Source: an uncultured Nitrososphaerota archaeon
Lineage (GTDB): Archaea > Thermoproteota > Nitrososphaeria > Nitrososphaerales > CADDZS01
Direction of reading: 5' to 3'
NCBI GenBank assembly: GCA_963799845.1
Contig: CAWCYI010000004.1
Coordinates: forward strand, 1,888,001-1,952,000
DNA length: 64,000 nt
The position numbers and the translations under genes were made by a program. The notes beneath the pieces are model-generated. The model was given only the letters and a program-made list of their open reading frames with translations, did no database searches and was not told the DNA's origin. This document shows, piece after piece, positions 2,433 through 60,951 of the stretch (position 1 is its first letter; the number at the start of each line of letters is the position of its first letter).

Positions 2433-4399
2433 CTAAACATTAATAGTCTTCTCTTGCTCCTCGGATTTCTTAGGACTATTCAAGCCCATTTTCTTGACGA
2501 GCGCATCATATCTCGGCTCCCCATGGAGGTTTTCGTAGACAAAGTCCGAGGCCATGGAGGGAAGATAGCCCTCCCGTTGCTCGTACGCTTTTTCTAGAAA
2601 CTCGATCGCCCTTTCTTTCTCGCCGAGCACCGCATAAACGGCCGCAATCCTCGTGTAGAGAAGCGGCTTCCCCTCGACGGGTTGTTCAAGCAAGACCAAA
2701 AGCTCCTGGCTTCTTCAGGCTGGTTTGCCTTGTCATAAGCGTAGGCTAGGTCTCCATAGAAGACCGTGGTCTTGCTCTCTTCTACAGCCTTCTTCACCTC
2801 TGCAAGACCGACATCGATCATCCCTTTGCGTATATGTGCCAGCCCCAAATTATCCAAGACGAACGTATTACCGGGATCGAGTTCCAGCGCTCCCGAGAAT
2901 AGTTCGATCGCCCGATCGTACTGTCCGGAATAAAGATGCCAGGTTCCTGCGTTTCCCAAGGTCTCCACCGAAAGAGGGTTCAGTTGTACTGCCTTATCGA
3001 CTTCTATAAGGCATTCATCCCAATGGCCCGTGAAAGCGAAAATCGAGGACAGCCCGTCATGGGCTTCTGCCAGATTCGGGTTGAGCTCGATTGCTTTTAT
3101 GAAATCCTGTTCACGCGATGCAAAATCGAAATTAGTTCCGTGAGAAAAGGCAAGGGCCAGATGCGAGTCGGCTAGAGAATCGTCAAGTGCGAGAGCCTTT
3201 TTGGCTAATCCTTCGGCGCGCTCAAAAGCTACCTTCGAATCCATGAGATCCTGGAACCCGAGTTTTGAGTAAACACCCGCTAGTCCGCAGTAGGCGAGAA
3301 CGAACTTCGGATCTAGTCGAATTGCTGCCTCGAAATGCCCGATCGCACTCTCCAGGGAGCTTTTATCCCATCTCTGCAAGTTCACTCGACCTTTTAGATA
3401 TTCCAGATGGGCTTCTACACTTGCGGTCTCTTTCCGATCGATATTCTTCCGATCCAGATCTGTTAATTTCAGATGTAAACTGGAGGCGACACTCTCTGCC
3501 AGTTCAGTCTGAACTGCAAAGATGTCTTCGAGATTACGATCATAACTCTCAGCCCAAAGGTGACTTTCAGTATTGGAGTTGATGAGCTGCGCGGTAACAC
3601 GGATTCTATTGCCGGCTTTTCGAACACTTCCTTCGATCAGGGATCCCGCCCTAAGTTCTCTCCCGATCTGACCTGCACTCTTTTCCTTTTTCTTGTAATT
3701 CATTATGGAGGTTCGCGCGATCACTTCAAGACCCCTTAGCAGAGATAATCTGGCGATCAGCTCCTCGGTCAAGCCATCGGCGAAGAACTCATCATTGGGA
3801 TCGGGGCTCAAACTCGTAAAGGGAAGAACGGCAACACGATGCCTGTCAAGAGATACCTCGGTCACAAAATCCCTTTCCCACGGGAGGTCCACCTTGTAGA
3901 TCTCTATATTATCCGTTACGTTCTTCAAACTCTTGTTTCCCAAGCTGGACAGATGGTGTTCGAATTTGTTTTTGATTTGAACAGCTACCTGTTCGGTTAG
4001 GCTGATTCCTCCAGGCGGAGCAAGGGCCTCAATTCTCGAGGCGATATTAACAGCGTCTCCGTAGACATCGTTTTGGTTGTGGATGACGTCCCCAAGGTGG
4101 ATTCCTATCCGTAACAAAATCCGTTTTTCCGGGGACCGATTCAAATTTGATTCATGGAAAGAGTTCTGAATTTCAAAAGCGCAGCTTGCAGCGTCCAATG
4201 CACTCGCAAATTCCACCAGGAAGGCGTCTCCGATGGTCTTAATTTCTTGGCCTCTATGTTTAGGAAGAAATGATCTCAATATTTTCCGGTGCTCATCCAG
4301 TAGTTCCATGGCCAGAACCTCGTTCTTCTGAGTGAGAGATGTGTACCCCACAATATCAGTGAACATGATCGCAGCTAGTCTGCGATCGGCTTGGAGCAG
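2433..4399 (-). CDS. Class III adenylyl cyclase + TolB-like + TPR protein; one frameshift at ~2701; probable CTG start
   Basis: RRLAAIMFTDIVG, KTIGDA, GDAVNIASR, AVLPF...FADGLTEELI and TPR repeats. ORF 2433..2699 supplies the C-terminus. Confidence 0.88.
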
Positions 4400-4554
4400 T
4401 AAATTCGCCCTCTAATCCTTTCATTCGAACTTGGAAATAAAACAGTAATGTTTCCCATACGCAATTGTAACGAACGAAAGTTTCGAACTTTTCAATTCAA
4501 AATCTTGAGGTTTGACAGAATCCTTTACTATGTACTGATTGCTCGCTGTCCACA

Positions 4555-5457
4555 ATGAGCGAAAATAGGGAAGGGCTGATCAACGTCCTCGGGTACAATT
4601 TGTTCTATCGAGTGTTTGAGCCAAAGGAAGGCGGGGTAAAGGGAACGATACTTTGTCTCCACGGAGGACCTGGATTCCCGCACAATTATCTACTTTCGCT
4701 CTGCGACCTCACCAATTTCGGTTATCGAACGGTTTTCTATGACCAGCTTGGCGTTGGCAACTCCGAGATGCCGAAGAACAAGTACATCTTTTCGATCGAA
4801 TACGGCGTCGAGGAAGTTGAAGCTTTTCGCAAGGCAATGAATCTCGGAAAGGTGAATCTGTTCGGATCAAGTTACGGCGGTCTCCTAGCGATCGCTTACG
4901 CTCTAAAATATCAGAGGAATTTGAAGAGCCTCATAACCGCAGGCGGGCTTGCCAGCGTTCCGCTGACGGTTGCTGAAATGGATAGAATGAAGTCGGAGCT
5001 CAAACCGGAGGTGGTTTCGGTTCTCGAAAAATACGAGAGCATTGGCGACTTTGAAAATCCTGAATACATCAATGCCGTTATGGTGTTTTATCGCGAGCAC
5101 TTCTGCAGGCTATCACCGTGGCCGGACGATGTTCAGTATGCCATCGACAATGTCAGTAAACCGGTCTACTCGTTGATGAATGGACCGAACGACTTCACGA
5201 TAACTGGCGGCCTGAAATACTGGGACGTCACGGACAAGCTCCACACGATAAAAGTACCCACCTACGTCACCGGAGGAAGGTTTGACGAAGTTTCAACCAA
5301 GGTGGCTGAGAGTATCCACAAAGGTATCAAGGGATCCAAGAGATCAACCTTCGAGAAGAGTTCTCATTTGCCGTTCTGGGAGGAGCGGAACAAGTACATG
5401 AAAGCCGTTGCAAACTTCCTTGATAGCCTGAATGAAAGTAGGAAGAGAAAAATTTGA
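4555..5457 (+). CDS. pip: Proline iminopeptidase (tricorn F1-like, alpha/beta hydrolase S33)
   Basis: HGGPG, YDQLGVG, GSSYGG nucleophile elbow, GRFDE and SSHLPFWEE motifs. Confidence 0.9.
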   Translation: MSENREGLINVLGYNLFYRVFEPKEGGVKGTILCLHGGPGFPHNYLLSLCDLTNFGYRTVFYDQLGVGNSEMPKNKYIFSIEYGVEEVEAFRKAMNLGKVNLFGSSYGGLLAIAYALKYQRNLKSLITAGGLASVPLTVAEMDRMKSELKPEVVSVLEKYESIGDFENPEYINAVMVFYREHFCRLSPWPDDVQYAIDNVSKPVYSLMNGPNDFTITGGLKYWDVTDKLHTIKVPTYVTGGRFDEVSTKVAESIHKGIKGSKRSTFEKSSHLPFWEERNKYMKAVANFLDSLNESRKRKI

Positions 5458-5490
5458 AGGTTCTTATTTCCGAAATCTGTTGAGCTGTCT

Positions 5491-6142
5491 ATGAAATTCG
5501 CCGTACCCACTTCAACCATAGTTGTTGCAATTATTGCAGTTCTCGCAATCGGATTGTTTGCAGGATTTGGATTTATTCGAAGAACTACGCGTGGCACCAC
5601 GAACTACGTGAACCAGACTCAAATTCAGACATTCCTCTCGACGCAGGCCGTGGTGCAGAGTGCTGTAACGACAACCACAACGACCTCTATCTCGCCGTCA
5701 ACTCATACTGTTTCTACCGTATCTACATTGAGGGTTCCAACGACATTGGATTTTTCTATCACAAAATACCAAAACAGTACCGAACTCGAAACCCAAACCG
5801 TTTACAAAACGATTAACCAGACCACGACAACTGAACCGAGCGGGGCTGTAACTTTGCTTTCAAACTACTTGATTAGTTTCACGGTTTACGAGCCTGATCT
5901 AGCTTTGACATAGGCCTCGTTCTATCCGGGTTTCAATAGATTTCTTGACATCAGTTACGAATCCACCGATCCGATTCACTGGGTCCTCTACGGAAACTCT
6001 GTAAATGAAACGTCATTCCCACGTCGAATTTCCTGTGATGGCAGACGTCAGGTATTCCCTCTACGTTTACAATGACGACTGTAATTTTGGGGGATGCACG
6101 ACCCCTTTCAATGTCATGGCATCCTTAGTTTATGAATATTGA
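5491..6142 (+). pseudogene. Membrane-anchored Thr-rich surface protein with an in-frame TAG at 5911 and a frameshift near 6020
   Basis: N-terminal TM and Thr-rich stalk. Coding-like sequence continues past the TAG and, after a shift, ends ...FNVMASLVYEY* at 6142. Confidence 0.55.
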
Positions 6143-6411
6143 GCGAGACTTCCCTTGGGTTTAATGTCCCCTTTTTCTACGCCTCGTAAGTATGTAGATT
6201 CTTGTTTTCGATCATATTCTCTATGCAATAACCACATGCGCGATAAATTACTGTACCTTATGCGAGAAACAGATTCGGAATCTTCATTGAAATAACGAAT
6301 TTATTCCTATTCTATGTAATTCATTAGGGCGCGTGTTCCTATCCCAACTTAGAGTTTCCGAATGACCAGATTTATATCATAAGACGGACCAAAACCGATT
6401 CGAATAGAATT

Positions 6412-9382: not shown

Positions 9383-10046
9383 AGCATTCTACTCTGGACT
9401 AATTTCAATAACGATGAAGTACAAGCTTGCGGATTGGGGCCCAGTTATTAAATGCATGTTTCGAAATCTGATACTATTTGCCTAGTAGTATTCCTCAATC
9501 CGATCAAACCTTCACGCATCCATTTCAGAAGTATTTCCTGGGCTGATCCATTAAAGAATCGTTTTTGGGATAATTATCCTGAATTTTTGCAAGTGATCAG
9601 AATGTTTAGGGCAAAAGATTCCGTTTTCAATCAAGCCACATGATTTCGGAAATCTTCTATCATATCGAAAGCCGCAGAACATCTTTTGCAATCAAGATAG
9701 TGACTGATGATACCAATGAATTCATTCTCACGAACCAGATCATCTTACTTCACAAAATTGAATCTGTGTTAATTTCTGAACGCTCGAATGCTCTCGATTC
9801 TCTATCATTCGAGTTAGACGATAAAGGCAAAGTCAAAATCGACTCTGAAAAGAGAAATCCGAATTCGTTAGCAGAAAAAAGATCAGCCTACCAACTGGGT
9901 CTCTATGTTCGCGGAGCGTCCGATACGAAAACATCACTAACAGAGTATATCGTATTTCGATATATCGAGAAAAGATTTTTCCTGATTTGTGGAAACGCTC
10001 TCAAGTATTATATTTTGAGTTCGACAACGGTATTTCTGATTCATGT

Positions 10047-11472
10047 TTGAGGTACGAATTCTCCATTAAGAAACTTGGGATCGCGAAACCCGTGTTGTTG
10101 TTTGTACTCGCTCTAATTCTCTCCGCGGGTGGAGCAACCATGTTTTCATCCGCCTCAGTCGCCGTCACGCCGACATTCAGCGCAGCTGTGAATTTGAGCA
10201 ATGACTTGGGAAAGGCGAATACTCCCGTTATTTCCAGCCAGGGGCTCAATGTTTATGCTGCGTGGACTGAAGGCAGCAAGGGGGTATTCTTCAGAATGAG
10301 TTCGGATGGTGGAAACACCTGGTCTCCGACGTTATCGTCGGCCGCGCTGAAATTGAGCAATCATGGAGGCAGCACCGCGTTCCCCGTAATGTTCGCTCAA
10401 TATCAGTATCCAAACAGCGGTAATGTCTACATCGCTTGGACTCAGGGAACCAAGCAGGCAAATGGCTCGATGGTTACACAGATTTACGTAGCTTCAAGCA
10501 CTAATTATGGGGCCAGTTTTACTACCACTCAGATTAGTCACAACTCAACAAACAGCCAGAACACTCCCGCGCTTTCCGCGTGGGGTACCGATGTCTACGT
10601 CTCATGGTTCTCGGCAAACAATGCAACGGGTTATGGATCTGATTATGTTAGTTCTTCGAACAACAACGGCGTCACGTGGGGAAAGCCCATCGATGTGGTC
10701 AACCCATCCGGTGGCGGGGAGACTGAGATTGTCGCTTCCGGTTCTAGCGCCTACATGGTCGGGGATACTATCCTGTTCACTGCAACCTATAATTCCGGAG
10801 CTTCGTGGTCTCAACAAGTGAACCTGTATAACCAGCCGTACAATTCCAGTTCTACCTCAAACTACGAGGGACGTGAACCATGGATCGCCTCATACGGCAA
10901 CCTTGTTTACGTCGTATGGGAAGCGAACAGCACGACACCCGGAATAAGTTACCACGATCAGGCAGTTACGAGCACCGACGGAGGACTCACGTGGGGTGCA
11001 ATCCAGAACGTCACCGATCCACTCAAGGATAGCTGGGAACCGGAGAATGCCGCTTACGGGAGCAACGTGTTTCTCACTTTTCACACAGTGTCAAGTCAGG
11101 GAGTTTACGTAACTTCGGCCACGAACGTGAATTCGGAATCGCCCGCTTGGAGCACACCTGTACTTCTAAGCCCAACCAAGCTGAAGAGACTCGTTCTCGC
11201 ACGTGTTCACCTCAGATGGAGTGAATGTTTTCGTGATGTGGGGCCAGCAGATATCGACCGGATCATCTACCTGGAATGCGTACATTGCGTACAGCGGTGA
11301 CAGCGGATCAACCTGGAGCAAGCCCATCGACATTAGCAACAATGCAAAGGGGGTTGCAGCGCCGAATACGGATGTGACCTCGTTCAATCTCTCCACATCC
11401 GGAACAAATTGCTATGCGATCTGGACCTTGACAAACGCAGGGACGTCGCAGATATACTTCGCCGGCTCCTAG
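10047..11472 (+). CDS. Secreted BNR/Asp-box beta-propeller protein, paralog of 8036..9382; frameshift at ~11189
   Basis: Asp-boxes SSDGGNTW, STDGGLTW and SGDSGSTW. Removing one base in AG[A]CT joins the 9987 and 11203 ORFs. TTG at 10047 follows a TATA-like element. Confidence 0.85.
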
Positions 11473-11586
11473 ATCCAATGGGATCTAATCCACCCTTCCT
11501 TTCTTTCTCTTGCCTAAGCGATCAACGTTTGCGCGCTTCAGTTCAAGAAGAAAGATTTTATTCTGAATGATCCTGCTGAGCAAGTC

Positions 11587-11814
11587 ATGTATTCTCAGCT
11601 ATCTGAATTGGATAGAAAATTGTTGAGAATGCTTGTGAGTACTGGCGGTGAAATATCTACCAATGAATTATCCCAGCAACTTGCTATTCCATCAGGCACT
11701 GTGCAGAGGAGACGCAAGAAACATTACGATTTGATAAGTAATATCGGACAGCTAGACAGGCGCTCTTTCGTTCCGATGCGATTTCAGCCTTTAACCCCCT
11801 TGTTCCAAGGTTGA
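11587..11814 (+). pseudogene. Lrp/AsnC-type HTH N-terminal fragment
   Basis: LSELDRKLLRML...ELSQQLAIPSGTVQRRRK HTH; similarity ends near 11720. Confidence 0.6.
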
Positions 11815-11818
11815 TTTG

Positions 11819-12802
11819 TTAAGTTCTGTCATCATGCCCCACAGTTATGACTACATTTCCTGTTTTTTGTCCTGTATCGACATACGTGTGGGCTTCGGCA
11901 ATCTGTTCCAACGGATAGCGCCTATCAATTACAGATCTTATCTTTCCCGCTTCAATAATCTCTTTGATGAAAATCAAATCTTCAGTCTTATATGACACGG
12001 TCCCGCCTATTACTTTCTTGCCGCTCCTCGAGGTCCAAAGTGCTCGAAATTGCTGAGATAGCCCCGGGTTTCCCAAAAGATAGAACCCATTTTCCTTTAG
12101 CGATCTTATACAACCAGAGAACGAACTCTTCCCTACCACATCAAAAATAACATCATAGGTCTCCCCGTTTTTGGTGAAATCTTCATTGGTGTAATCAATG
12201 ACCTGGTCTGCGCCGATTGAGCGCAGCATGTCTAATTTCCCCGTGCTGTCCACGCCGGTTACTTCCGCCCTAAATGACTTGGCAAGCTGCACCGCAAAAG
12301 TGCCTATACTTCCGCCTGCACCAATGATCAGGACCTTCTTTCCATTTTGGATGTTTGCTTTTCTAAGAAAATGTAATGCATGCAGTCCCCCAAGTGGAAC
12401 AGCTGCGGCTTCCTCGTAGGTCATGTTGGACGGTTTTGAAGCGATCAACGCTTTTTCAGGCAGACAGTCGTATTCAGCATAAGCACCGAGACGAAAACCG
12501 GTAAGCGCAAAAACTTGGTCACCCTTCTTGAACTGTTTTACGTCTTTGCCCACTGATTCAATTTCCCCCGCTAGCTCTTGCCCCAGTATTTTTTTTCTTG
12601 GTCCCCTGAAACCAAATCCTATTCGCGCGAGTAGCCACAACCAGGTGGGCATCTTGAATCTTCGAATTTCGCAGTCCCCCATAGTCACTGTAGTCGCATG
12701 CACTCTTACCAGTACTTCACTTTCCTTGGGAATAGGTTTCTCCACCTCTTTGAGCTGGAGAACTTCTGGTGGGCCGTATTTTGTGCAGATGATCGCTTTC
12801 AT
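11819..12802 (-). CDS. NAD(P)-dependent MDR-family (quinone oxidoreductase-like) dehydrogenase
   Basis: MKAIICTKYGPPEVL, GAYAEY, GAGGSIG Rossmann motif and IDRRYPLEQIAEAH...GNVVI. Confidence 0.9.
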   Translation of the reverse strand: MKAIICTKYGPPEVLQLKEVEKPIPKESEVLVRVHATTVTMGDCEIRRFKMPTWLWLLARIGFGFRGPRKKILGQELAGEIESVGKDVKQFKKGDQVFALTGFRLGAYAEYDCLPEKALIASKPSNMTYEEAAAVPLGGLHALHFLRKANIQNGKKVLIIGAGGSIGTFAVQLAKSFRAEVTGVDSTGKLDMLRSIGADQVIDYTNEDFTKNGETYDVIFDVVGKSSFSGCIRSLKENGFYLLGNPGLSQQFRALWTSRSGKKVIGGTVSYKTEDLIFIKEIIEAGKIRSVIDRRYPLEQIAEAHTYVDTGQKTGNVVITVGHDDRT

Positions 12803-12885
12803 CAGGGCATCCTTCTTTATTTGATTGATTGTGCTTAACATTGATATTCCCTACGTCTTCTCTAATTCAATCCGCTACTCGCGCA

Positions 12886-13199
12886 TCATGCTATAGTTAT
12901 TACTACTTTTCCTTTAGCGTGCCCTTCTCCAAGATACCGGAGTGCTTCAGGAACCTCGCTTAGCTGATATCGTCTATCAATAGCAGGGACGATTTTGCCT
13001 TCTTTGCAAAGCTCAGTTACGAAGACCAAATCTTTTCGATTTGGTTGAACCGCCAAGATGCGTATTTTCTTGCCCGTGGTCATTCTAATCCATGGTCCCA
13101 GGATCAAAATTTGGAAAAGTGTAGCTGACAGAACCTCCCACGGCGAAATAGCTTCCATTGGGCCTTAGCGCCCGCTTGTAGGCGAAAACCGAACGATCG
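12886..13199 (-). pseudogene. C-terminal fragment of a second tandem MDR dehydrogenase
   Basis: RSVFAYKRALRPNGSY...IDRRYQLSEVPEALRYLGEGHAKGKVVI; 5' part missing; frameshift at ~13127. Confidence 0.8.
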
Positions 13200-13529
13200 T
13201 CGAAATTACTACGACTCGCCCGGATCTTGGTATTGGAGTGGGCAAACAGATGCCCTCTTTTTGTAAACGCGTTCAAGACTGTCGCTGGGAACCATCTTAG
13301 CATGATATTTGTCGCGGAGGATCCACAGAGCTTTCAGGACGTGGTCGACGAACACCTGCTGAAAATCGAGGGACTGATCGATTTCAGGTTCTCAAACATT
13401 CTTGACTGGACGAAGGGGTTTTGGGCGCCACTTGACCTTATTATGTCAGTTAGGGAAGAGCCGCCCTGCGGGATGAGACCATTCTGCTTGAAGTGTCCCA
13501 CGAATCCCGGGTACCCCGGAAAGGTCTAG
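13195..13529 (+). pseudogene. C-terminal part of an Lrp/AsnC-family regulator with a Cys-rich tail
   Basis: CPLFVNAFKTVAGNHLSMIFVAED RAM-like domain followed by PCG...CLKCP; no HTH. Confidence 0.55.
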
Positions 13530-13714
13530 GAGACCTCCCGACAGACAATGATTGACAAAGACATGGCTCAGAACAAAGTTGGCTGAGTGAATATTCTTAG
13601 GGCGATTTCAGAATCCGTGCTACTAAGGAATGCCCTTTCGGTACTACGGATCCGTATGCATTAACCAACCGACTAATTTAGAGGAGCGGTCGAAGCTAGC
13701 AATCGCTTCTAATT

Positions 13715-14272
13715 TTGCAGGCTAGCCACGACATATTCGGAAGCTATTCTTTCGACGCCCACATCTCGGAAATTCGAAACAAAACGACGAATTCCCGAGT
13801 TCTTCTCGTGGGATCGGACGGCTGGGACTCCCTGCAGGAAGGCCTGTACAAGAAATTCTCGACCGGTGCCTCGGTAATAATTCTGGAGATGGGATTCTCG
13901 TATGGCAAAACCGTTGCATCGCAGTCGGCCATGGATGATCAATCCGGGGAAGCGAGAGCAAGATCGATTGCAAACCTCTGTGGATTAATCACCAATGCCG
14001 GTTGGGGAACCCTCTCGTTGTCAGGCGATCTCGAAGAGGGTTCGAACATTGTCGTGTTTGTCAAGAATTGCGTTTTCTGCAACAAGAATCATCCCGCTTA
14101 TCCGTGCAACTTTTTGAGAGGAGTTGGGCTGGGGCTGGCGACGACACTGTTTCAGCAGCCCTTCAAATCTTCGTCGAACTGTTCCGTGGGAAAAGAGGAA
14201 CACTACTGCAAGATCGAGCTTCAGGCGAGCAAGTTGAGAAACTGGAGTGCGAAATTCCAGCAAAAGCCGTGA
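13715..14272 (+). CDS. V4R (4-vinyl reductase) domain protein
   Basis: LEMGFSYG, AGWGTL, NCVFC...PCNFLRG...C...C motifs. Confidence 0.8.
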   Translation: MQASHDIFGSYSFDAHISEIRNKTTNSRVLLVGSDGWDSLQEGLYKKFSTGASVIILEMGFSYGKTVASQSAMDDQSGEARARSIANLCGLITNAGWGTLSLSGDLEEGSNIVVFVKNCVFCNKNHPAYPCNFLRGVGLGLATTLFQQPFKSSSNCSVGKEEHYCKIELQASKLRNWSAKFQQKP

Positions 14273-14279
14273 GATCCAA

Positions 14280-15107
14280 TTGGTCGCAGAAGCAAAACAA
14301 GAACTTACGGAAAAAGAAAACGAGAACAAATTAGTAGACCAATCGTCGAGCTCGCGTAACGCATATCTGATAGCCACTGCGGTCTGGCTTTTGGTAACTG
14401 CAATCTTTGGGTTCCAGTCGTTCTATCCAAACTTAATCGGTCCTATTTCGAACGTTCTTCCTTCCATGCTAGCTGGCACCGCACTGGTTTGTGCCGGCCT
14501 GTGCGTGCGAAAGTACGGACTCAAATTGAGCGAGAATTTTGCGCGGATGTGGTTTTTGTTTGCCCTGGGACCTGCTTTCTGGGTGGTAGCTGAGATTACG
14601 TGGGCAATCTATTACTTTTTTCTCAATGTCCCGGTGCCATATCCGTCAATTGCGGATATATTCTACATAGGAGCATACCTGCCGCTCTCGATCGGTCTAT
14701 TCATGTACTTCAGGGCGTTTTCTGGTGCTCTAACTAGACGTAGACTCGCCGCATCTCTTGGTACGATAGCGGTGGCGGCAGTTCTAATTTTCACATTTGT
14801 TATCCCGACTGAGCTGAAGATGGCAAACCCGCCGATCGTAACTGTAACTGACCTAACCTATCCAGCTCTTGATCTTGTCTTATTCTCTCTTGCTGTTTTG
14901 AGCCTTGCAATATTTCTGGGAGGATCAATTGGAAAATGGTGGATTATGGTAGTCGGTGCAATTATTCTAGATATCGTGGCGGATGAGTATTTCCTTTATC
15001 TCGAAGCAAAGGGGACTTATTACAACGGCAGTTTTGACGATCTGATTTACCTGTGGGCCTATCTGATTTTTGCGCTAGCGTTTTACGTCCACAAGAAAGA
15101 ACTTTGA
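14280..15107 (+). CDS. Multi-pass membrane protein resembling N-terminal sensor modules of signalling proteins
   Basis: About 8 TM segments with PYPSIADIFY and YPALDL motifs; no cytoplasmic output domain. Confidence 0.7.
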   Translation: MVAEAKQELTEKENENKLVDQSSSSRNAYLIATAVWLLVTAIFGFQSFYPNLIGPISNVLPSMLAGTALVCAGLCVRKYGLKLSENFARMWFLFALGPAFWVVAEITWAIYYFFLNVPVPYPSIADIFYIGAYLPLSIGLFMYFRAFSGALTRRRLAASLGTIAVAAVLIFTFVIPTELKMANPPIVTVTDLTYPALDLVLFSLAVLSLAIFLGGSIGKWWIMVVGAIILDIVADEYFLYLEAKGTYYNGSFDDLIYLWAYLIFALAFYVHKKEL

Positions 15108-15133
15108 TTGTCATCTATCGCTTTGATTTCGTG

Positions 15134-16660: not shown

Positions 16661-17017
16661 TCAGCTTTGCTCCAGGTCCTTTGTCATCTGGTCGAGCTGT
16701 TCTTTTGTGATCTCGCCCTTGGCGTATCGCTCTCTTAGGGCAACCATTGCTGGATCATAGTATTGTCCGTCACTCCAACCGCGACCCCATCCCCAGCAAC
16801 CCCAGAAGAACCAGCGAAATCCGAAGAAAAAGAGGAATATCACCGGGATGAAGATGAGCGGGAAGAACGGAAACGGGAACCAGTAGTATACCCCTGGGTG
16901 AACCCCAGTAGTTGCGAAGTACAAGCCGATTCCAGCGACTATTGCTACGACGCTTACGGCCACTAGTATCGGTACTAGGAGCCACCTTGTCGAAGGACGA
17001 TTACGTGATGGATACAT
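16661..17017 (-). CDS. SHOCT-domain membrane protein
   Basis: Two TM helices and a C-terminal LRERYAKGEITKEQ motif. Confidence 0.85.
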   Translation of the reverse strand: MYPSRNRPSTRWLLVPILVAVSVVAIVAGIGLYFATTGVHPGVYYWFPFPFFPLIFIPVIFLFFFGFRWFFWGCWGWGRGWSDGQYYDPAMVALRERYAKGEITKEQLDQMTKDLEQS

Positions 17018-17091: not shown

Positions 17092-17919
17092 ATGAGCTCA
17101 ACGGAATACCTAGTCGGGCTAGGTCTGAACAAGAACGAAGCTGAAGCTCTCGATGCTTTGATTTCACTCGGACCCGCGGGGGCATCTGACGTCCACAAGT
17201 ACTCTGGTATGCCCAGAAACAAAGCGTACGAGTCGCTAGAGAGCCTGGCTGAACGTGGAATGATCGAAATTCAGCACGGGCGGCCAACGCTTTACAGAGC
17301 GATGGGCGCAAAGGCCGTAATCAATAATCTAGTGGATGAATATTCTAAGGAGGCAAAGGAGGCACTCGGCCTTCTTGAAAGAAAGCAAGAGGATTTGAAG
17401 GAGGGATCGGAATCCGATATTCAGAACACCTCAGCCTGGATGGTCAGAGGAGAGCTCGGGGTCAAGAGGCGACTCGCGGAGCTAATTTACAACGCGAAAG
17501 GTGATATTTTTGTCATGGGCGGATACCCGCCGAAGTACGCGCTCGCGGTCAAATCCGCCCTAAAGGCAGCATCGAAAAAAGGAGTGAGCGCAAGGGCAAT
17601 ATCGATGATAAGGCCCTTCGAGGATGTCGATATCTCTCAAGACGATAGGACGGTCATCGAATTCAGAACCGTGAAAGCATCGCCAAAGCTAGCGCAGAAG
17701 ATTGATGCTTATGATGAAAAGTTGATTGACAGCTTCAGAAGCATGTCAGGCTATGGTGCAATGGTTATTATCGACGAATCTACCGCCTTTGACATTGTAG
17801 ATGACGGCAAGGATCCAAAGAAAGTGGCTGGGATTCTATTTAGGGCTCCAGGCATTCCTCGCATCCAGAAGGCGACGGTCGAGAGAATAATCGGATTGTA
17901 CACAAGGAAACTTAACTAG
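17092..17919 (+). CDS. TrmB-family transcriptional regulator
   Basis: LGLNKNEA...MPRNKAYESLESLAERG...GRPTLY wHTH plus an effector domain. Confidence 0.88.
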   Translation: MSSTEYLVGLGLNKNEAEALDALISLGPAGASDVHKYSGMPRNKAYESLESLAERGMIEIQHGRPTLYRAMGAKAVINNLVDEYSKEAKEALGLLERKQEDLKEGSESDIQNTSAWMVRGELGVKRRLAELIYNAKGDIFVMGGYPPKYALAVKSALKAASKKGVSARAISMIRPFEDVDISQDDRTVIEFRTVKASPKLAQKIDAYDEKLIDSFRSMSGYGAMVIIDESTAFDIVDDGKDPKKVAGILFRAPGIPRIQKATVERIIGLYTRKLN

Positions 17920-19564: not shown

Positions 19565-19830
19565 ATGAAAGGCAGCCTATTCAACCAAAAACAATGGAAG
19601 ATCCTGGAGCTCCGAGCTCGCGGATTTACTCAGTTAGAGACTGCAAAAAAGCTTGGGACATCCAGGGCAAACGTTTCGATGATCGAATGGCGCGCAAGAA
19701 GGAAATTGGATAAGGCCCGAGCTACCATCCAAGTCTACGAAAATTTGCAATCCTCCCGTAGGGTCTCGGTCGATAGGGTAACCAAGCTGAAATCCCCGTG
19801 ATAGTCCTGCACGAAGGCGACAGGCGTCCC
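19565..19830 (+). pseudogene. tfx: Tfx-family DNA-binding protein, frameshifted at ~19788 and truncated
   Basis: GFTQLETAKKLGTSRANVSMIE. The shifted frame reads EIPVIVLHEGDR, matching KVPMIVLLEADK in the paralog, then similarity stops. Confidence 0.75.
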
Positions 19831-25811: not shown

Positions 25812-27011
25812 TCAGTTAGATTGTGATCGTTGAGGAGATTCCTGCCAAGGTGCCAATGATTCCAGTGCTAACTGAAAGTCCTCGATGATATCTTCCGGCG
25901 ACTCGATTCCCACGGACAGACGAATTAAGCCGTCGGTGATCCCGAGTCTGTGCCTGTCTTCGGAAGACATTCCGGAATGAGCCGTTGTTGCCGGAGTCGT
26001 TATCAGGGTCTCCACCCCTCCCAGGCTTGGGGCTGCTATCGGAATTGTAACACTCTTTATGAAACGGATTGCTGCGTCTGTCCCTCCCCTGAGCTCAAAA
26101 CTTATCATTCCGCTGTAGCCGTCAAAGAGTTCGCTGGCACGCTTATGCTGCGGATGGCTGTCCAGTCCGGGGTAGTTCACCTTCTCGACTGCCTTGCTAC
26201 TTTCGAGGAACCTGGCTATCTTTAGAGCACTCTCGTTGTGCTGCCGCATCCTCAACGCAAGTGTCTTCATCCCTCGGTGAAGCAAGAAACATGCGTGGGG
26301 ATCAAGACTGCCGCCAAGATGATTTAGGCGGTGCTTGACTTTTCCAATCAAATCCGATTTCCCAATCACCGCGCCGGCTACGATATCCGAATGTCCGTTC
26401 AGGTATTTGGTGCAGCTGTGAAGCGAGAGGTCGTAACCGAATTCGGGAGGACGAAAATTGATCGGGCTCGCGAATGTGTTGTCAATTATGGAGACAATCC
26501 CGTGAGATTTGGCGAATTCGACCACTGCCCTGTGATCTGCCACCTCGAGTAAGGGGTTTGTCATCGACTCGACATAAATTGCCTTGGTGTTTGGCCGGAT
26601 TTTTTCTCCCACGATTCTGGATCGTTGCCATCGATGAAATCGTACGAGATTCCGAATCCCTCAAGATCTTTCGTCACAAAATCATGAGTTCCGCCGTAGA
26701 GGCAATCCTGTGCCAGCAGATGGTCTCCCTTGGTAAGCATCGACAGGAGAGTCGTGGAAACCGCTGCCATCCCGCTTGCAGTAACAAGGGCACCCTCCGC
26801 ACCCTCAAGCGCGGCGAGCTTCTCGTGGAGAGCCAGATGATTTGGGGTGTTGTTCAACCGGATGTATCTCAGATCATCGTCAGCTCTTTGCTCCCATCGT
26901 TTCGAACATTGCCGTTTGAAATATCGGCATGGCGACTGCTCCTAGAATTCTGGGGGAGGGTTCGCCCCAGTGAATTAACTTGGTCTCAATATGTTTGTAA
27001 CTTTTCTCCAA
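25812..27011 (-). CDS. Cystathionine gamma-synthase/methionine gamma-lyase family PLP enzyme with two frameshifts (~26881 and ~26603)
   Basis: YIRLNNTP, ASGMAA, DNTFASP, SCTKYLNGHSD (PLP lysine), SLGGVETL and IRLSVGIE motifs spread over three frames. Confidence 0.85.
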
Positions 27012-28832: not shown

Positions 28833-30789
28833 TCATGAGGAAAACACGTTTTTAGAGAGGCCCATCTTCTCGTCAATCTTGCGCCAAAGAGGATCTTTTC
28901 TGTATTCTTTGAAATATGGTAGACTGCCGAACATCAGGATTGAACTATCTCTTTCTGCGATTCCTTTTTCGATCCACCCGAATCCTTCCTCCTTGTTTCC
29001 CATCGCAAGCTCGACCAGACCAATTTGGACTGGTTTGACATATTCGTCGCGGGTTAGGGCTTTGACGTGATCAAGAATCTTCAATGCCCCGATCTTGTTC
29101 CCTGCTAGGGCGTACACATATGCAAGTTGCAATCTCGATGTGGGAGAATCGTCCAAGTCCGCGGACCTCTTTGCATCCTCGATCGCTGTATCAAACTCAG
29201 ACAGCAACGCATGAAGATTGGATTTCCAAAAGTACGCGGGTGAAAAATCTGGATTAAGCTCGATCAATTTATTGTATTCTCGCAATGATTCATCAGTCCT
29301 TCCAAGCATCGTTAGAATGTTTGCCATCATCATGTTGAAGACTCGTGAATAGGGATCTAGGTCGAGTGCCTGCCTCTCGGCTAGAAATGCTTCCTCGTGC
29401 CTCCTCAGGTAAACAAGCAATATTGAATACCAGTGGAAGGCGTTAGCGTAACTCGGCCTGAGTTCGATTGCACGCTTTAATTCATTTTCCGCGGAGGTGA
29501 ATTCCCAAAACATCTCCATCAGAGTGAAGCCAAGAGAAGCGTGAGCTTCAGCAAGAGTTTCGTCAATTCCCAGTGCTCTCGTAGAAAACTGCCGCGCAAG
29601 AGGCCCCGCCCGGTCGGGTTTCATCCAACCATAGTTCACTGAAGCCGCGTAACAATCGGCGATCCCCGAGTACCCGCTTGCAAAATTAGAATCGACCTTC
29701 ACTGCGTGTTCGAAATACTTCATTGCCTTGTTCACGCTCTCCTTAGTTCTCTCGTTCCAGTAAAATCGACCCTTCAGATAGAGCGTATAGGCTTCTGGGA
29801 CCGCGGCTAGTTTTTTGTTCAAGGTCGTTGCCTCTTGTGATTGCAGCTGGACCTTGAGCGCCTCAGCGACTGTCTTTGCGATGTCACTCTGGATAATGAA
29901 AACGTCTTCCAATTCCCTATCGTCAGCTTTCAGCCCAGACGTGATCACTTGACGCAGAGTCTATGAGCTGGACAGTGATTCGAAGTTTATCTCCGGCTTT
30001 TCTTACGCTGCCTTCAAGGACGCTACCCACTTCAAGCTCTTTCGCAATTTCAGCGATCTTCTTTTGCCCTCCCTTGTAACCCATCACCGACGTTCTGGCG
30101 ATCACCTTGAGACCGCCTATTCTTGACATCGTTGAGATCAATTCCTCGGTCATGCCGTCAGCGAAATACTCATTTTCAGGATCGGGACTTATGTTCGCAA
30201 AAGGGAGGACAGCGATCCGCCGTTTGTCGAAGACTTTCGTCGCTGTCTCGGAATATCCCGTGGTGGTCCATGGCATTATCATTTTGAAAATTTCAATTGG
30301 CACATTGACGTTCTTCAGTTGTTGTAGCCCGAGACTCTCCAGCCGAAGTTCGAATTTGTTGTTAACCTGATCGTAGACCTGACGAGTTAGACACACGCCA
30401 CCATCGTCGGCGAGGGATTCGATCCTCGATGCCACGTTGACGGCATCTCCTGATATGTCTCCCTGATATTCCACGACATCGCCTAAATGGATACCAACCC
30501 GGAGGTGGACTCGATTCTCTTGACGCAAGGAAATATTGAACTCCCTGACCGCGCGCTGAATATCGTAAGCGCACCTGACCCCGTCCAGGCCGCTTGGAAA
30601 CTCCACAAGGAACGCGTCCCCAATGGTTTTGACCTCTCTGCCGTTATGCCTCGTAAGTATCGGTCTGATTAGTTTCCTTTGTTCTTCTAAAAGCGCAAGA
30701 GAGAGCGATTCATTTCTTTGCCCGAGGACTGTATAGCCTGTCATGTCTGTAAACATGATTGCGGCGAGTTTACGCTCTCCTTGGGACAA
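28833..30789 (-). CDS. Class III adenylyl cyclase + TolB-like + TPR protein (second paralog); frameshift at ~29924
   Basis: RKLAAIMFTDM, KTIGDA and GDAVNVASR. Deleting one G restores WAESYDR as in the paralog. Confidence 0.88.
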
Positions 30790-39701: not shown

Positions 39702-40647
39702 TCAGATTTTCATCGCATCCTTGAGTCCCTTGTACCTGTTTCTTATCGTAACCTCAGTAACACCCGCAGCCTCGGCGAGCTCCTTCTGAGTTATGTTATC
39801 ATTCTCCATAACGGAAGCAACGTAGAGCGCAGAAGCCGCTAGTCCCATCGGTCCCTTCCCAGCCGAACCATTTGTCTCTATCGTACGCCTGAGTATCTCC
39901 ACCGCCCTGCGCTTCGTCTTCTCCTGGACGCCGGCTTTGCTCGCTATCCTCGCGAGAAGCTTTACCGGATCAACAACAGGCACTCTGAGGTCAAGTTCAT
40001 TGTAGAGCAACCGGTAGCATCGAGCCAAATCCTTTTTCTTGATGTTACTGATTAGTGATAGATCTTTCAGATTACGAGGTGTTTCCGTATCTCTGCAAGC
40101 AGCGTAAAGCGAGGCTGCAATCATCCCGGAGATCGACCTCCCCCTGATCAACCCTCTTTCGAGCGCCTTCCTGTAGATGTATGCAGACTTTTTCGACTAC
40201 CAAGGCGTTGACGTTTAATTTGTCGACGAGTAGGCTGAGCTCACTGAATGCCTGACGCCTATTTCTGTCGGCAGACTCATGTACTTGCGACCTTCCGTCC
40301 CACGTGCGGAGCCTCTCAATCTGGGTCCTCATAGCAGCGGGAAGAAGCTTGCCGCTGGCGTCTTTATTCTCGAATCCTATGACCGTAGAAAGTCCCATGT
40401 CGTGAAGCGCGAGACTCGAAGGTGCGCCCGTATGAGCGCGCTGATTTGCTTCCTCGGTTGAGAATGCCCTCCACTCGCGTCCAGCATCAACAATTTGCTC
40501 CTTCAAAACATAACCGCAGTTGCTGCAGAAGAGTTCGGCTCCAGAAGAGTCAGTCACCATGGGACCCTTCGCGCACCTTGGGCAGCGGGCTCGTGTACCT
40601 TCGTGACGACTGAGATCCGTTGACGAATTTTTGATTCCGCCGCTCAT
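39702..40647 (-). CDS. tfb: Transcription initiation factor B; one frameshift at ~40187
   Basis: Zn ribbon CPRC...CSNC, B-reader EWRAF, two cyclin repeats and canonical GVTEVTIRNRY helix. Removing one base restores EKAAYIYRKA. Confidence 0.92.
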
Positions 40648-48827: not shown

Positions 48828-49059
48828 ATGCCAATCGCATTCATTCTGATCAACGTTGAAGCAGGCTCAGAAGAGGAGGTCGCCCATGAGCTCAAAGTCA
48901 TCGACAATGTAAGGGATGTCTATCTGATTTACGGAGTGTACGATTTTGTGGTAAAGGTGGAAGTCTGAAACACAGCAAAAGGTCAAAGAAACAATCACGT
49001 GGAAGATAAGAAAGATAGACAAAATCAGATCTACTCAGACCCTCATGATTTCTAGCTAA
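48828..49059 (+). CDS. Stand-alone Lrp/AsnC ligand-binding (RAM) domain; frameshift at 48964
   Basis: MPIAFILINVEAGSE...YGVYD...ITWKIRKIDKIRSTQTLM after removing one T from AG[T]CT. Confidence 0.85.
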
Positions 49060-53284: not shown

Positions 53285-53420
53285 TTTCTACAGAAATCGC
53301 AACGTGATCATCTCTGCGAGAGGTCATACTCGATTGGAATAAGATAAAAAACTCGTAAGAATTCCATTTGATCGTTGTCTCTTCCGTTTCACGTGCGATC
53401 GTAGCAGCATCGTGTAACGT

Positions 53421-54909
53421 CCGGCATCTGAAGGTCAGACCAGAATCCAGTACAAGTGGGTAGCTCTCAGTGTAACAACAGTTGGAACAGTGATGGCGGG
53501 AGTTGACGCGAGGATCGTCCTCGTCGGCCTTCCGACCATTGCAGATCAGCTTCACGCCGGCGTGGCAGACGTCATCTGGGTGAGCCAGGCGTACTTATTT
53601 GCGAGCACGCTGGGGTTGCTTTTGATCGGAAGGACGGCTGATCTCGTTGGTAGGGTCAAAATCTACAACCTCGGCTTTATCGTGTTCACTGTCGGCTCCG
53701 GTCTCGCCGCCCTCTCCTTCACCTCGCTCGAGCTGATCCTATCCCGGATGGTACAGGGCATTGGGGCTGCGATGTTAATCACGAATAGTGCCGCTATTCT
53801 GACTGATGCGACCCCGAGAAACGAACTGGGGAAGATACTCGGGATGAACAGCGTAGCGTACAGGCTGGGATCGGTTACCGGTCTCACGCTTTCCGGAGTG
53901 ATACTTTCGTTCACGGACTGGCGCGCTCTTTTCTACATTAACATCCCGATTGGAATTTTCGGGACTGTATGGGCTCATTACAGGTTGAAGGAGATTTCTA
54001 CGAAAGACACCTACAGGGGCATGGACTGGGTCGGATTCTTTACCTTCTCGATAGGGCTCGGGCTCTTACTCCTTTCAACCACCTACCTCAGCTTCGGGTT
54101 ATCAGGATACGACTATGGATTTGCCATGCTCGCTTCCGGAACTACCCTAATTTTATTCTTCGTGTGGTACGAGCTTCGTGGCAAGATTGCGGCGATGCAG
54201 GTGCAGCCCATCTTGGACATGAAGCTTTTCAAGATCAAGGAATTCGCCGGCGGCTCCCTCGCACAGATGTTCAACGCCATCGCATGGTCCGGGATTCTTC
54301 TCATGGTTTCATTCTATCTGCAGGTTATAGTAGGATACACGCCACTCCAGACGGGAATCCATCTCCTCGCGCTTGATGCAACTTACATTATAATTGCTCC
54401 AATTTCTGGTCGGTTGTCAGACAAGTACGGATCGAGGTCGTTTGTGATCGCCGGTCTGAGCATAAGCAGCTTTGCTTTCCTACTTTTTGCTTTCGTAAAC
54501 GTCAACACGAGCGTTTCGATTATTCTGGTCGCGCTTGCAGTCCTCGGAGTTGGAACCGGATTGTGGGGCTCTCCTAACATCAGCTCGGTGATGGGATCCG
54601 TCCCGGCTAACCGACGGGGCATTGCATCAGGATTTCGGATTACGCTCTCAAACATCGGAGACACAGCGAGCTTCGGTCTTGCAATTCTCATCATGACTCT
54701 CGTTATCCCGTACAACACGCTCAACAACCTCGTGCAGAGCTGACGATCTTTCGGGATCGCCGCCTGTGGGAAAGGAGGAGTTCATAATGGGATTCCAGTT
54801 AGTCGCACTGGTGCTGACAGGCATCAACACTATCTCTATCATTCCAGCATCGCTCGCAAAGCGCAGGGTTTCGAGTGCAAAAGTAGATACGAAGCACGTA
54901 GCAGATTAG
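53421..54909 (+). CDS. MFS DHA2 (EmrB/QacA-like) transporter; frameshift at ~54742
   Basis: YKWVAL, GRTADLVGR, RMVQGIG and GRLSDKYG motifs. The last TM lies in the shifted frame after AGCT[G]AC. Confidence 0.88.
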
Positions 54910-54972
54910 AGTAATTATTTACCAAGCAGCGAATCACAGACTCGTGCAGAGCTGACGATCTTTCGGGATCGC
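54729..54972 (+). repeat. 32-bp exact direct repeat (54729-54760 and 54941-54972)
   Basis: CTCGTGCAGAGCTGACGATCTTTCGGGATCGC occurs twice. Confidence 0.9.
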
Positions 54973-56328
54973 TATTCTCGCGGCTGGAGGTCAGATCGAG
55001 AAGTTACGAGATTCGGTGTACAGGGTGAAATCTCAAAGCAACGGTGCCGAACTATACAGAGTATTTCATGATGGAGCTCATTGGACCTGCGACTGTCCTG
55101 ATTATCGACAGCATGGAGACGATTGCAAGCATACATTTGACGTCCTTTATGCAACCCGACTAGAGGATATTGTCGCCTCCAATTCGGGGGCGATCACAGA
55201 GAACGATGCGGAGGTTCCAAATGAAGAATGAAAGAATTTCTAAGCATCATAGGCTATCTCAACGTAAGCTCTGGGGTCTAGGAATCCTTTCCATCGGTGG
55301 TCAAGTCGAAAGAATCAATGACAGAAATTTCAGAATCAAATCTCAGTCCAATCCTGAAGTAAGTCACAGCGTTGTCTGGGAGAATGGGGCTTGGAGCTGT
55401 AATTGTCCTGATTTCCTAGAAAGAAAGAAGCCTTGCGAACATGTTTACACAGTCCTGTATCTTCTGCAGCTCCCTATAACATAATCGTATCAAATTCAGC
55501 CGCTCTAGAACGGAAATGTCAGAACTGTGGTTCCTCTGATGTCGTACGAAACGGGACCCGTATGAACGTATCCGGTAGTGTTCAAATTTATCTGCGCAAC
55601 AGCTGCCGGAGCCGTTTCGCTGAAAGGGGTTCGGGCGAGGTCGGAGCCTGCAACTTTACTTACATGTTGATAGCTTTTGATCTTTTTTTACAAGAAAGTC
55701 AGTTTACGAGACATAAGAAATCACATTTACCAGGTCTATTATGTAGAGAAACCGGTCTCAACTATCCACTCATGGATCATGAGACTCAACAAAATTGTTC
55801 TGAACGCAGTAGCAGGTCTCGTCCCCGAGGTGGGAGACAAGTGGTTGGGTGACGAGCTGGTTGCGAAAGTAAATGGAAAAAGGAACTATCTCTGGAACAT
55901 CTTGGATTTCGAAACTCGCTTTCACGTGGTCTCCTTTTTGGCGGAAGGTCGGAGCGAAACTGAAGCGAGAAACGCAATAGCTGAGGCTTTTCGTAGAACA
56001 CAAAAAGAACCCAAGGATTTTGTTAGCGATGGACTTGCTTCGTATTAAGGCAATTAGTAACCTGCCAAAGTCGACAAAGAGAATCAATCATGTGAAAAAT
56101 GTTGGAATAAGAGACAAGACAAACAACAACAGAATAGAGAACAGACATAGTACTATTCGTGATTGGGAAAGGACGAAAAGAGGAATGAAAAGTAGAGCGG
56201 CCGAGCATTTTGAAGCACTGCAAGTGTATCACAACTACATCCGTCCACATCTCAGCCTGGGGAATGAGCCGCCGGATAGATCAGTTACAGATCAGCGCTG
56301 GATCTCCACGATGAACAATAAACTTTGA
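54920..56328 (+). mobile_element. Degenerate IS6-like DDE transposase preceded by two SWIM zinc-finger modules and a Zn ribbon
   Basis: CDCPDY...CKH and CNCPDF...CEH (SWIM); CQNCGS ribbon; GDE, YLWNILD, SDG and NNRIE (DDE); three frameshifts. Confidence 0.8.
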
Positions 56329-60003: not shown

Positions 60004-60023
60004 TTAGGTCACAGCTCAATTAA

Positions 60024-60039
60024 TTAAACACATGTTTAA
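60024..60039. promoter_or_regulatory. TTAAACA-CA-TGTTTAA palindrome, candidate TetR operator
   Basis: Sits in the 50-bp divergent gap between tetR and the membrane gene. Confidence 0.7.
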
Positions 60040-60053
60040 ATATTTGCCTAGGG

Positions 60054-60557
60054 TTGCTGCAGGTAAATCGAATAATGATATCAGAGTGGAATCTTTCGCT
60101 TTTTCTCGCAGCCTCGGGAATCAACGGACTACTTGCCGGAACGAGCATAACTAAATCAGTCGTTGAGTTGCCCGCTGGCAAGAAAATAGGATCTCTTGCC
60201 TTCGCTGCCTACAGTCGGGCTGCTGACCTAAAAAACGGCTTGCTTTGGTACTCTTTCCTTGGTATTATCGGTCCTGTTCTGACCGTAACAGCTACCATCA
60301 TGACAAACATTGGATATGGTCCATCTGGAGACTTTTCGATTGCTCTGGACGTTGCGGCTGTACTCTCAGTCGCACATGTTGGATCGACGGCTCTGGCCGC
60401 TCCCAATATGATGAAGGTAAGTCGTGCTGGCAATGAGATTGCGCAATTGGAGGTTCTCTATGCTCGATTCCGACGATGGAACGGTTTGAGAGCCCTCTTG
60501 CAGGGCCTCACATTTCTCGTCTGTCTCGTCGCAATATATGAGCTGATAATCGGGTAG
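60054..60557 (+). CDS. DUF1772/anthrone-oxygenase-like 4-TM membrane protein
   Basis: Four TM helices and a C-terminal RFRRWNGLR motif. Confidence 0.7.
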   Translation: MLQVNRIMISEWNLSLFLAASGINGLLAGTSITKSVVELPAGKKIGSLAFAAYSRAADLKNGLLWYSFLGIIGPVLTVTATIMTNIGYGPSGDFSIALDVAAVLSVAHVGSTALAAPNMMKVSRAGNEIAQLEVLYARFRRWNGLRALLQGLTFLVCLVAIYELIIG

Positions 60558-60647
60558 CTAGCATTTCCTTCGATCCACACCAAAACATTCCTCACTCTTG
60601 CTTTTTCTAGAAAGCCCAATCCTGCAAATGATAAGAATAGAGAGTAA

Positions 60648-60951
60648 TCATCTCGCGCCAAGAAATCTGGATTGGGCTTCAGAGACGACATCGAACAGGG
60701 ACAAATTCTCCTTGTACGATATATGAAAAGCTTAGCAGATTTCCCTAATCACTCTTTCGACAATTGGATAGCCCCGCCCCAAAATTTCACCGAGGTTCTT
60801 AACCACGTCGAGAGGGCTTTTCGGGAAGTCCTTTTCTGGAATGTTGTACTTTTCGCTGATCTGGAAGTATAAGGCTCTCTTGGCTCCCTACGCCGAAAGT
60901 GTCTAGAGCCTTGTCTACGCACTCGAAGATCCGCGAATTGAAACCCTTCAT
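60648..60951 (-). pseudogene. NitrOD5/DUF3227-like small archaeal signalling domain with a frameshift (60874) and an in-frame stop (60732)
   Basis: FECVDKALDTFG...LYFQISEKYNI...P..P..VVKNLGEILG...IVERVI. Confidence 0.6.

Follow-up and report, generated by a model that had tools for sequence, protein, structure and literature searches.

Why should otherwise recognizable genes lose their reading frame again and again at one tetranucleotide? The question is raised by a 64,000-nt stretch of DNA (G000:C4:1888001-1952000, GC 0.477; hereafter the window) from the metagenome-assembled genome (MAG) of an uncultured Nitrososphaerota archaeon, in which a sequence-only reading had counted about 11 frame breaks in or next to AGCT and proposed that they are the footprint of host methylation at that site. 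All 11 contexts are present at the coordinates that reading gave, and three-frame translations change frame at or near each of them. The answer that emerges is that the breaks in which the assembly carries an extra base are assembly errors and not mutations, the genes being intact at four of the five cited sites that were compared with short-read contigs. We consider these to be long-read consensus errors at AGCT which most likely result from N4-methylcytosine (m4C) deposited by an orphan beta-class amino-methyltransferase, and we give this reading as a whole a probability of roughly 0.75. The clustering at AGCT thus stands for the insertion-type breaks and does not extend to the three sites at which a base had been thought missing.

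The genome comprises 4.60 Mb in 9 contigs, the largest of 2.14 Mb, with an estimated completeness of 86.7% and contamination of 4.9%. Since a gene for TFB lies in the window, the organism is an archaeon, and the closest named relatives of one of its genes are soil MAGs labelled 'Nitrososphaerales archaeon'. A nucleotide comparison with relatives was set aside, as the best of them are ~80-88% identical and fragmented and cannot place single-base indels. A search of public sequencing runs with window positions 11000-20999 returned four runs (X1-X4) from one soil-metagenome study, with the sampled words of that segment present at fractions of 0.90 in X1 and 0.66 in X2. The Logan contigs of these runs were aligned to positions 11000-30999, a stretch that covers five of the cited sites. 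Loose ends of the contigs carry adapter remnants that we take to be those of a transposase library, which indicates that the contigs derive from short, amplified reads. Likeness to the window reaches 99% or more in 24 of the 25 X1 pieces; the contigs of X3 and X4 span only 19 and 13 of the 30 bins, so that silence of these two runs is uninformative.

Over these 20,000 bases, the listed differences between contigs and assembly amount to five indels and four substituted positions, or nine positions in eight events, and any difference found in more than one run is identical in every such run. At eight of the nine positions the contigs of X1-X3 restore AGCT. A true AGCT underlies seven of the eight events, of which three are substitution events and four are single bases inserted in the assembly; each of these four is at a cited site and is lacking from short-read contigs. 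Positions within two bases of AGCT make up 3.5% of the stretch, and the binomial probability of finding seven of eight events there is 5.4e-10. The extra base predicted in AGCT[G]AC or its complement at 13123, 26879 and 29922 is not in the short-read contigs, nor is the one in AG[A]CT at 11187 in a contig of X2. The context AGCTAC accounts for five of the seven AGCT events, and 5 of the 13 true AGCTAC sites are wrong (the assembly displays eight, and the reads restore five more). Consensus quality of the stretch is Q33.5 with the AGCT errors and Q43 without them.

When the short-read version is adopted, open frames and the continuity of Pfam domains come back. The break at 11189 divides open reading frames (ORFs) of 483 and 95 aa (9849-11469, +), and a zinc-type dehydrogenase gene (12889-13333, -) has the error at 13127 in its C-terminal piece; the downstream piece of this gene matches positions 67-134 of 134 of Pfam ADH_zinc_N_2. 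The gene for a Cys/Met-metabolism pyridoxal phosphate (PLP) enzyme (25815-27047, -) is broken twice, with positions 28-135 and 130-381 of Cys_Met_Meta_PP on different pieces; the first break is at 26881, and the second, at 26600, is an error away from AGCT which the sequence-only reading had missed and which our frame scan independently assigned to the interval 26561-26660. At 29924, an adenylate-cyclase/TPR gene (28836-30795, -) is split at WAES|YDR, with Guanylate_cyc upstream of the break and TPR downstream.

Outside the read-tested stretch, the cited breaks at 40185, 48962 and 54738 are each crossed by intact paralogs that place the frame change within one codon of the AGNCT or AGCTGAC motif. 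All three are insertion-type, and their forms match those verified by reads; paralog alignment and the identical form of error together support the view that these, too, are assembly errors. The TFB gene breaks between VVEK and AYIYRK, with Zn_Ribbon_TF upstream and the TFIIB cyclin repeats downstream on different pieces, and an intact paralog on contig C6 (~83% identical) reads VVEKAAYIY across the break. In the gene for a small Lrp/AsnC ligand-binding domain, the AsnC_trans_reg match ends at position 42 of 73 and the break reads KVE-x-ETQQ, at a point where a 71%-identical paralog is continuous through KVEDETLQK. The break in the MFS transporter gene (S-Y-DLSGS) severs the C-terminal helix; its paralogs stay in one frame into KQEFIxGFQ, and the gap measures 37 nt where the paralogs have 12 residues. 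With four sites corrected by short-read contigs and three more supported by paralogs, the expectation that most of these genes are intact is borne out. The 3' end of the MFS gene also carries a 37-nt direct repeat (54724-54760 and 54936-54972, 95% identical, spacing 212), with AGCTGAC in both copies.

Two further insertion-type sites are less sharply placed. At 60872 the break is of the insertion type, as had been proposed, and its resolution is ~24 nt, since paralog alignments fit two junctions equally; the AGGCT form assigned to it is not one that we find enriched (see below). A site that the sequence-only reading did not list lies in an IS6/IS240-like transposase, where virtual removal of a base at 55983 unites arms of 103 and 114 codons within an insertion-type interval at 55981-56048, and where the DDE_Tnp_IS240 match ends at position 70 of 139. 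The strict-arm 'virtual repair' scan of the window that revealed this site was rejected as a means of counting breaks, for among the verified sites it recovered only 29924. All sites are collected in Table 1, together with the candidate enzymes discussed further on.

Table 1. AGCT-associated and other frame breaks, base substitutions and candidate methyltransferases. Positions are those of the window unless a contig is named; a base in brackets is extra in the assembly.
Feature	Position	Strand	Basis or remark
AG[A]CT, extra base 11189	11187..11191		left out by X2 contig only
AGCT[G]AC, extra G 13127	13123..13129		left out by X1, X2, X3
Substitution error, assembly GTCACT, reads GTAGCT (16771 C>A, 16772 A>G)	16769..16774		X1, X2, X3
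Substitution, assembly AGCTG, reads AGCTA (17143 G>A)	17139..17143		X1, X2
Non-AGCT error, C missing after 26600, true GGATCTTTTT	26600..26601		C put in by X1, X2
GT[C]AGCT, extra C 26881	26879..26885		left out by X1, X2
Substitution, assembly GTAACT, reads GTAGCT (29451 A>G)	29448..29453		X1, X2, X3
GT[C]AGCT, extra C 29924	29922..29928		left out by X1, X2
AG[A]CT in TFB gene (39705-40686, -)	40185..40189		paralog-based
AG[T]CT in small Lrp/AsnC ligand-binding-domain gene (48828-49056, +)	48962..48966		paralog-based
AGCT[G]AC in MFS transporter gene (53418-54906, +)	54738..54744		paralog-based
AGCT[G]AG in IS6/IS240-like transposase (55412-56328, +), not cited earlier	55979..55985		frame analysis
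AG[G]CT, insertion-type break in small gene (60735-61000, -)	60872..60876		resolution ~24 nt
AGCT beside deletion-type frame change in Tfx-like gene	19785..19788	+	paralog alignment
AGCT in 120-nt interval of deletion-type break, second adenylate-cyclase/TPR gene (2436-4411, -)	2701..2704	-	
AGCT near end of SWIM-domain ORF	55468..55471	+	gene boundary likely
SPPY enzyme, PF01555, 256 aa	C8:12137-12907		
SPPY enzyme, PF01555, 305 aa	C6:1380725-1381642		
SPPF enzyme, PF01555	C4:1979761-1980627		

Is the window typical of the genome? A codon model was trained on 460 stretches that stay open for 500 codons or more, and a candidate break was called wherever one coding-looking frame ended within a second such open frame and both flanks measured at least 50 codons. 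This gave 6,371 raw and 745 stringent candidates, 418 with an extra base in the assembly (insertion-type) and 327 with a base lacking (deletion-type); many of them are ordinary gene junctions, and counts were therefore set against expectation. For k-mer scans, intervals of at most 150 nt were kept, 363 insertion-type and 258 deletion-type after de-duplication. In an unbiased scan of the 363, the leading 6-mers are AGCTGA (41, with 7.6 expected), TCAGCT (32, with 7.6 expected), GCTGAC and CTCAGC, and the longer AGCTGAC is present 16 times where 1.4 are expected. The AGCT-derived signal is found on both coding orientations, as is expected of a strand-blind artefact, and it does not simply follow from the TGA within AGCTGA, since TCAGCT, read on the coding strand, is free of stop codons. 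The form AGACT or AGTCT is likewise enriched (74 against 39.7 expected); AGGCT or AGCCT is not (34 against 32.7). Among the 11 palindromic 4-mers tested, AGCT has a ratio of 1.4 and the other ten lie at 0.5-0.9. The signal is present on both large contigs (38/172 on C4, 20/130 on C6). Plain 4-mer enrichment over all intervals proved a poor instrument, being dominated by stop-codon k-mers, with AGCT weak (115 against 76).

The contrast sharpens when paralogs are used to narrow the breaks. An intact paralog that spans the break in one frame is available for 97 of the 621 candidates, 68 insertion-type and 29 deletion-type (median 28 nt). In this set AGCTGA or TCAGCT falls in 25 of the 68 insertion breaks, where 1.3 are expected and the maximum in 300 random sets is 5, and any AGCT-derived form falls in 43, against 7.6 expected and a maximum of 15. 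Deletion breaks show no such enrichment, neither in the paralog-confirmed set (3 of 29, with 3.6 expected) nor across all 258 deletion-type intervals (AGCT 59, with 65.5 expected). The genome-wide excess of indels at AGCT over other 4-mers for which the sequence-only reading proposed a test is thus present for insertions and absent for deletions. Homopolymers of five or more are enriched in neither class (ratios 0.5 for insertion-type and 0.8 for deletion-type breaks).

The scans also uncovered a second, weaker insertion-type hot spot, GGTACTG or CAGTACC, in 12 of 363 intervals (1.8 expected; maximum 6 in 100 random sets), three cases of which are paralog-confirmed. The motif contains GTAC, which in passages of a REBASE survey (PMC10609329) is listed as an m4C motif in Nitrososphaerales. 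Among deletion-type intervals, the k-mers CCGTAGC, TAAAAAA and others (~19 each) were discarded as copies of one repeated element, which took the set from 277 to 258. The element, with ~19 copies genome-wide, has a deletion-type frame change with TAAAAAA, CACCGTAGCAT and AAAGGACCGCAAG, and is probably an insertion sequence with a programmed -1 slip.

The three cited sites with bases supposedly missing beside AGCT look individually different as well. At 19785, the Tfx-like gene reads TKL|EIPVIVL against TRLQKVPMIVL in a paralog, and the site is not among the listed differences between assembly and contigs, X1 having a depth of ~8 in that bin, from which cover at the site is taken. The gene (19544-19924) has two frame changes ~60 nt apart, near 19785 and at a T6 run near ~19850, and an intact 154-aa paralog at 21717-22181; it may be a genuine pseudogene. 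The break at 2701 is narrowed by a paralog to ~2687-2708, where a T4 run adjoins AGCT, and it could equally be a slip in that run. At 55468 there is probably no frameshift at all but the boundary between a SWIM-domain gene and the IS6-like transposase, as the upstream ORF holds a whole SWIM domain (positions 3-37 of 38) and the next ORF starts with a zinc-ribbon-like CxxC. That region (55164-56328) reads as a SWIM-domain ORF followed by the transposase spread over three frames, with a second SWIM-like paralog directly upstream (54926-55162). One of the frame changes in the transposase lies at GATCTTTTTTT (~55685-55700); this and the error at 26600 are our two non-AGCT indel suspects, and both are at GATC followed by a T run (true sequence at 26600, GGAT[C]TTTTT). 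N6-methyladenine (m6A) at GATC is the other persistent mark reported for the phylum in passages of PMC10609329.

What could produce such errors? The commonest form is a spurious G after AGCT where the true next base is A (AGCTA becoming AGCTGA), chiefly in AGCTAC and AGCTAG, followed by a spurious A or T inside the site (AGCT becoming AGACT or AGTCT), and by substitutions on the site (AGCTAC to AGTTAC or AGTGAC; AGCTA to AGCTG). We propose that an orphan beta-class amino-methyltransferase places m4C on both strands of AGCT. Nanopore current would be altered by the modified base in a manner for which base-caller and polisher were not trained, so that most reads would mis-call the same few positions and pass the error on to the consensus. 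Symmetric involvement of both strands of a 4-base palindrome is what marks the site of a type II methylase. The observed spectrum consists of insertions, two G-read-as-A errors and one A-read-as-G error with no deletion signal, and it matches the one described for native DNA in passages of a recent preprint (bioRxiv 10.64898/2026.01.14.699587), which report more A>G and G>A substitutions and insertions and fewer deletions in native than in amplified DNA, and the strongest R10.4.1 error enrichment at a 4mC motif.

The finding is a member of a known artefact class and not a new biological mechanism. It has been reported, in the parts of the study to which we refer, that motif-bound, modification-mediated nanopore consensus errors (at GCAGC/GCTGG) are corrected by Modpolish and vanish on amplification (PMC10687267). 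Like those, the errors here recur at one short motif, survive polishing, vanish in short-read data and consist of G>A and A>G changes together with insertions. They differ from the bacterial-isolate substitutions with which the relevant passages of those papers deal in that half of the read-verified AGCT events are gene-breaking one-base insertions, and also in that the motif is AGCT, the source an archaeal MAG and the modification putative. Homopolymer indels in long-read assemblies can also give spurious frameshifts in MAGs, according to a passage of PMC13543314; unlike such errors, those described here show no enrichment at homopolymers of five or more, and one of the five read-verified indels (26600) touches a T run. 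Our literature search, which covered listings and passages in one limited library, found no paper on AGCT-specific consensus errors.

Such a mark has precedent in the phylum. Passages of the REBASE survey describe persistent orphan m4C AGCT methylases that run, together with GATC m6A, through Nitrososphaerota (PMC10609329); a review table lists M.NspBD3I, M.Nca01I and M.TarMY3I as thaumarchaeal AGCT m4C enzymes (PMC11033074, table entries); and a single-molecule real-time (SMRT) metaepigenome puts the modified fraction of AGCT at 82-91% in two Thaumarchaeota MAGs (PMC8919816, in the passage concerned). Motif and phylum are thus shared with the persistent orphan AGCT methylases of Nitrososphaerota and Methanomicrobiales (HG11, HG16 and HG19) as these passages present them. 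Our own genome holds orphan-looking beta-class SPPY enzymes, one of them family-wide, which we liken to HG11, HG16 and HG19 by description and not by sequence.

The search for the writing enzyme gave a result that answers the earlier prediction of an AGCT-specific m4C or 5-methylcytosine (5mC) enzyme in part: three genes of m4C type, none tied to AGCT, and no match of the 5mC kind. The C5-methylase family PF00145 has no match in the 86.7%-complete genome, which makes a 5mC enzyme unlikely. The family PF01555 has 12 matches, three of which carry SPPY or SPPF as motif IV and are of the N4-cytosine type (Table 1); in passages of PMC10406627 and PMC7544214, SPPY occurs in N4CMT, an N4-cytosine enzyme of solved structure, and DPPY in adenine enzymes. 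The C8 enzyme aligns to N4CMT over its full length (E=3e-18) and is 70-76% identical in four of the six genomes of the genus (one of them G001). Nine of the 12 genomes of the family encode the C6 enzyme at 71% identity or more; the other three, including G001, are 58-82% complete. The C6 gene sits beside SPFH, HTH, metallo-beta-lactamase-fold and TrmB genes and next to no nuclease domain, a housekeeping setting that gives it the look of a persistent orphan; lineage-wide conservation and no adjoining restriction enzyme, the two marks of such an orphan in the sense of PMC10609329, are both found. With three such genes, and with AGCT m4C listed for the phylum, an m4C enzyme is a plausible writer of the proposed AGCT mark.

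The other nine PF01555 matches are not SPPY or SPPF; several are DPPF or DPPY, and one has no readable motif IV. The last (G000:C4:1427535-1428338, -) lacks it at the N-terminus, is 43% identical to a DPPF enzyme of G019, a complete genome of the same order, and may itself be frame-broken. The SPPF gene follows a ParB-fused DPPY methylase (together G000:C4:1977992-1980627), ~26 kb past the window end, and the pair appears to belong to an element of plasmid or viral origin.

Several points weigh against the attribution to m4C. NCBIfam, PDB and related-genome comparisons link none of the three SPPY/SPPF enzymes to AGCT: NCBIfam offers generic adenine-methylase names below cut-off, and the PDB matches TTHA0409, N4CMT and M.PvuII are uninformative on recognition specificity. 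The C6 and C8 enzymes have no close counterpart in two complete small genomes of the same order, whose one full-length PF01555 gene encodes the G019 DPPF enzyme, unlike the SPPY candidates. The modification and its writer stand one step behind what was observed, namely the errors, their contexts and their genome-wide enrichment, as does the nanopore platform, which we infer from the 9 contigs of up to 2.1 Mb and the type of error. The short-read runs belong to the same study as, presumably, the assembly, and so are independent of the long reads and not of the sample. Finally, the seven events fall on ~92 AGCT sites (89 in the assembly and three restored by reads), so that ~8% err, and the errors depend strongly on the 3' flank, as a context-driven weakness of the base-caller would also produce.

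This last point is the core of the alternative that survives best, in which the AGCT errors are real but owe nothing to modification and reflect a weakness of base-caller or polisher at AGCTA(C/G) that would strike any organism. The low fraction of erring sites and the concentration of five of seven events at AGCTAC suit it, and so does the over-representation of G or C after AGCTGA in break intervals (49/75 against 1312/3348 in the genome). We nevertheless regard it as unlikely. A strand-symmetric signal on a 4-base palindrome suits a type II methylase better, AGCT m4C is documented in the phylum in the sources cited above (PMC10609329, PMC8919816, PMC11033074, each as far as the passages go), and the pipeline is otherwise accurate, as the ~Q43 outside AGCT (one error in 20 kb) attests.

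A second alternative, improbable and more so than the first, keeps a mark on AGCT and changes its chemistry: the first A might carry m6A, an enzyme that escaped detection might make 5mC, or the modification might be bulkier. The nine further PF01555 matches leave room for it, the genome, being 86.7% complete, could hold a C5 enzyme in sequence that the assembly lacks, and the review table of PMC11033074 has one AGCT m5C entry, for Methanocella conradii. The thaumarchaeal AGCT entries in the literature tables are, in the portions that we cite (PMC10609329, PMC11033074), all m4C, and the first A is not where the errors centre; they fall on the C/G of the motif and on the base 3' of it, with C called as T and a G added after T. 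That the frameshifts are genuine mutations or pseudogenes of the long-read population, with the short-read contigs coming from a different, intact strain, is scarcely credible even though assembly and runs may stem from different samples of one study and the Tfx-like gene, with its deletion-type change near 19785 in both data types, shows that frame changes of a real kind do occur. Differences between two strains would be scattered at random and would not restore one tetranucleotide at eight of nine positions, nearly all X1 pieces are too close to the window, and no viable organism would carry independent inactivating insertions by the hundred at a single motif in housekeeping genes, those for TFB and the PLP enzyme among them. 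Real mutations are excluded at the four read-tested sites and implausible elsewhere.

For users of this and similar genomes the practical consequences are considerable. At four AGCT-linked indels and seven AGCT-linked events in every 20 kb, the 4.6-Mb MAG would by extrapolation contain ~900 spurious frameshifts and ~1,600 errors, which would lower its completeness estimate and raise its count of pseudogenes. The genes split include those for TFB, the PLP enzyme, the MFS transporter and adenylate cyclases, and annotators, or inferences of genome decay, would be misled by them. A motif-aware or short-read polish should clear about eight of nine errors, with the gain in consensus quality given above for the tested stretch. 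If the footprint can be read as a methylome, the more tentative possibility considered below, motif enrichment at frame breaks could mine methylation motifs from public long-read MAGs in which raw data are not at hand, and the same approach could flag hundreds of false pseudogenes in them.

The errors also point, if indirectly, to AGCT methylation in this family of uncultured archaea and to three candidate enzymes. A Pfam search for archaeal AmoA (PF12942) gave no match in the genome, and control genomes likewise gave none, which leaves the negative with little weight; the organism may belong to a non-ammonia-oxidising lineage outside the surveyed taxa. It is tempting to go further and to read the footprint as a methylome, that of a lineage of soil Nitrososphaerales that gave no amoA match and that would be fully m4C-modified at AGCT through the enzyme at C6:1380725-1381642, and maybe at GTAC too; this we hold tentatively, as a possibility that falls a little short of an even chance. 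If it is true, the persistent AGCT/GTAC m4C trait of ammonia-oxidising Thaumarchaeota would extend back to their non-oxidising relatives.

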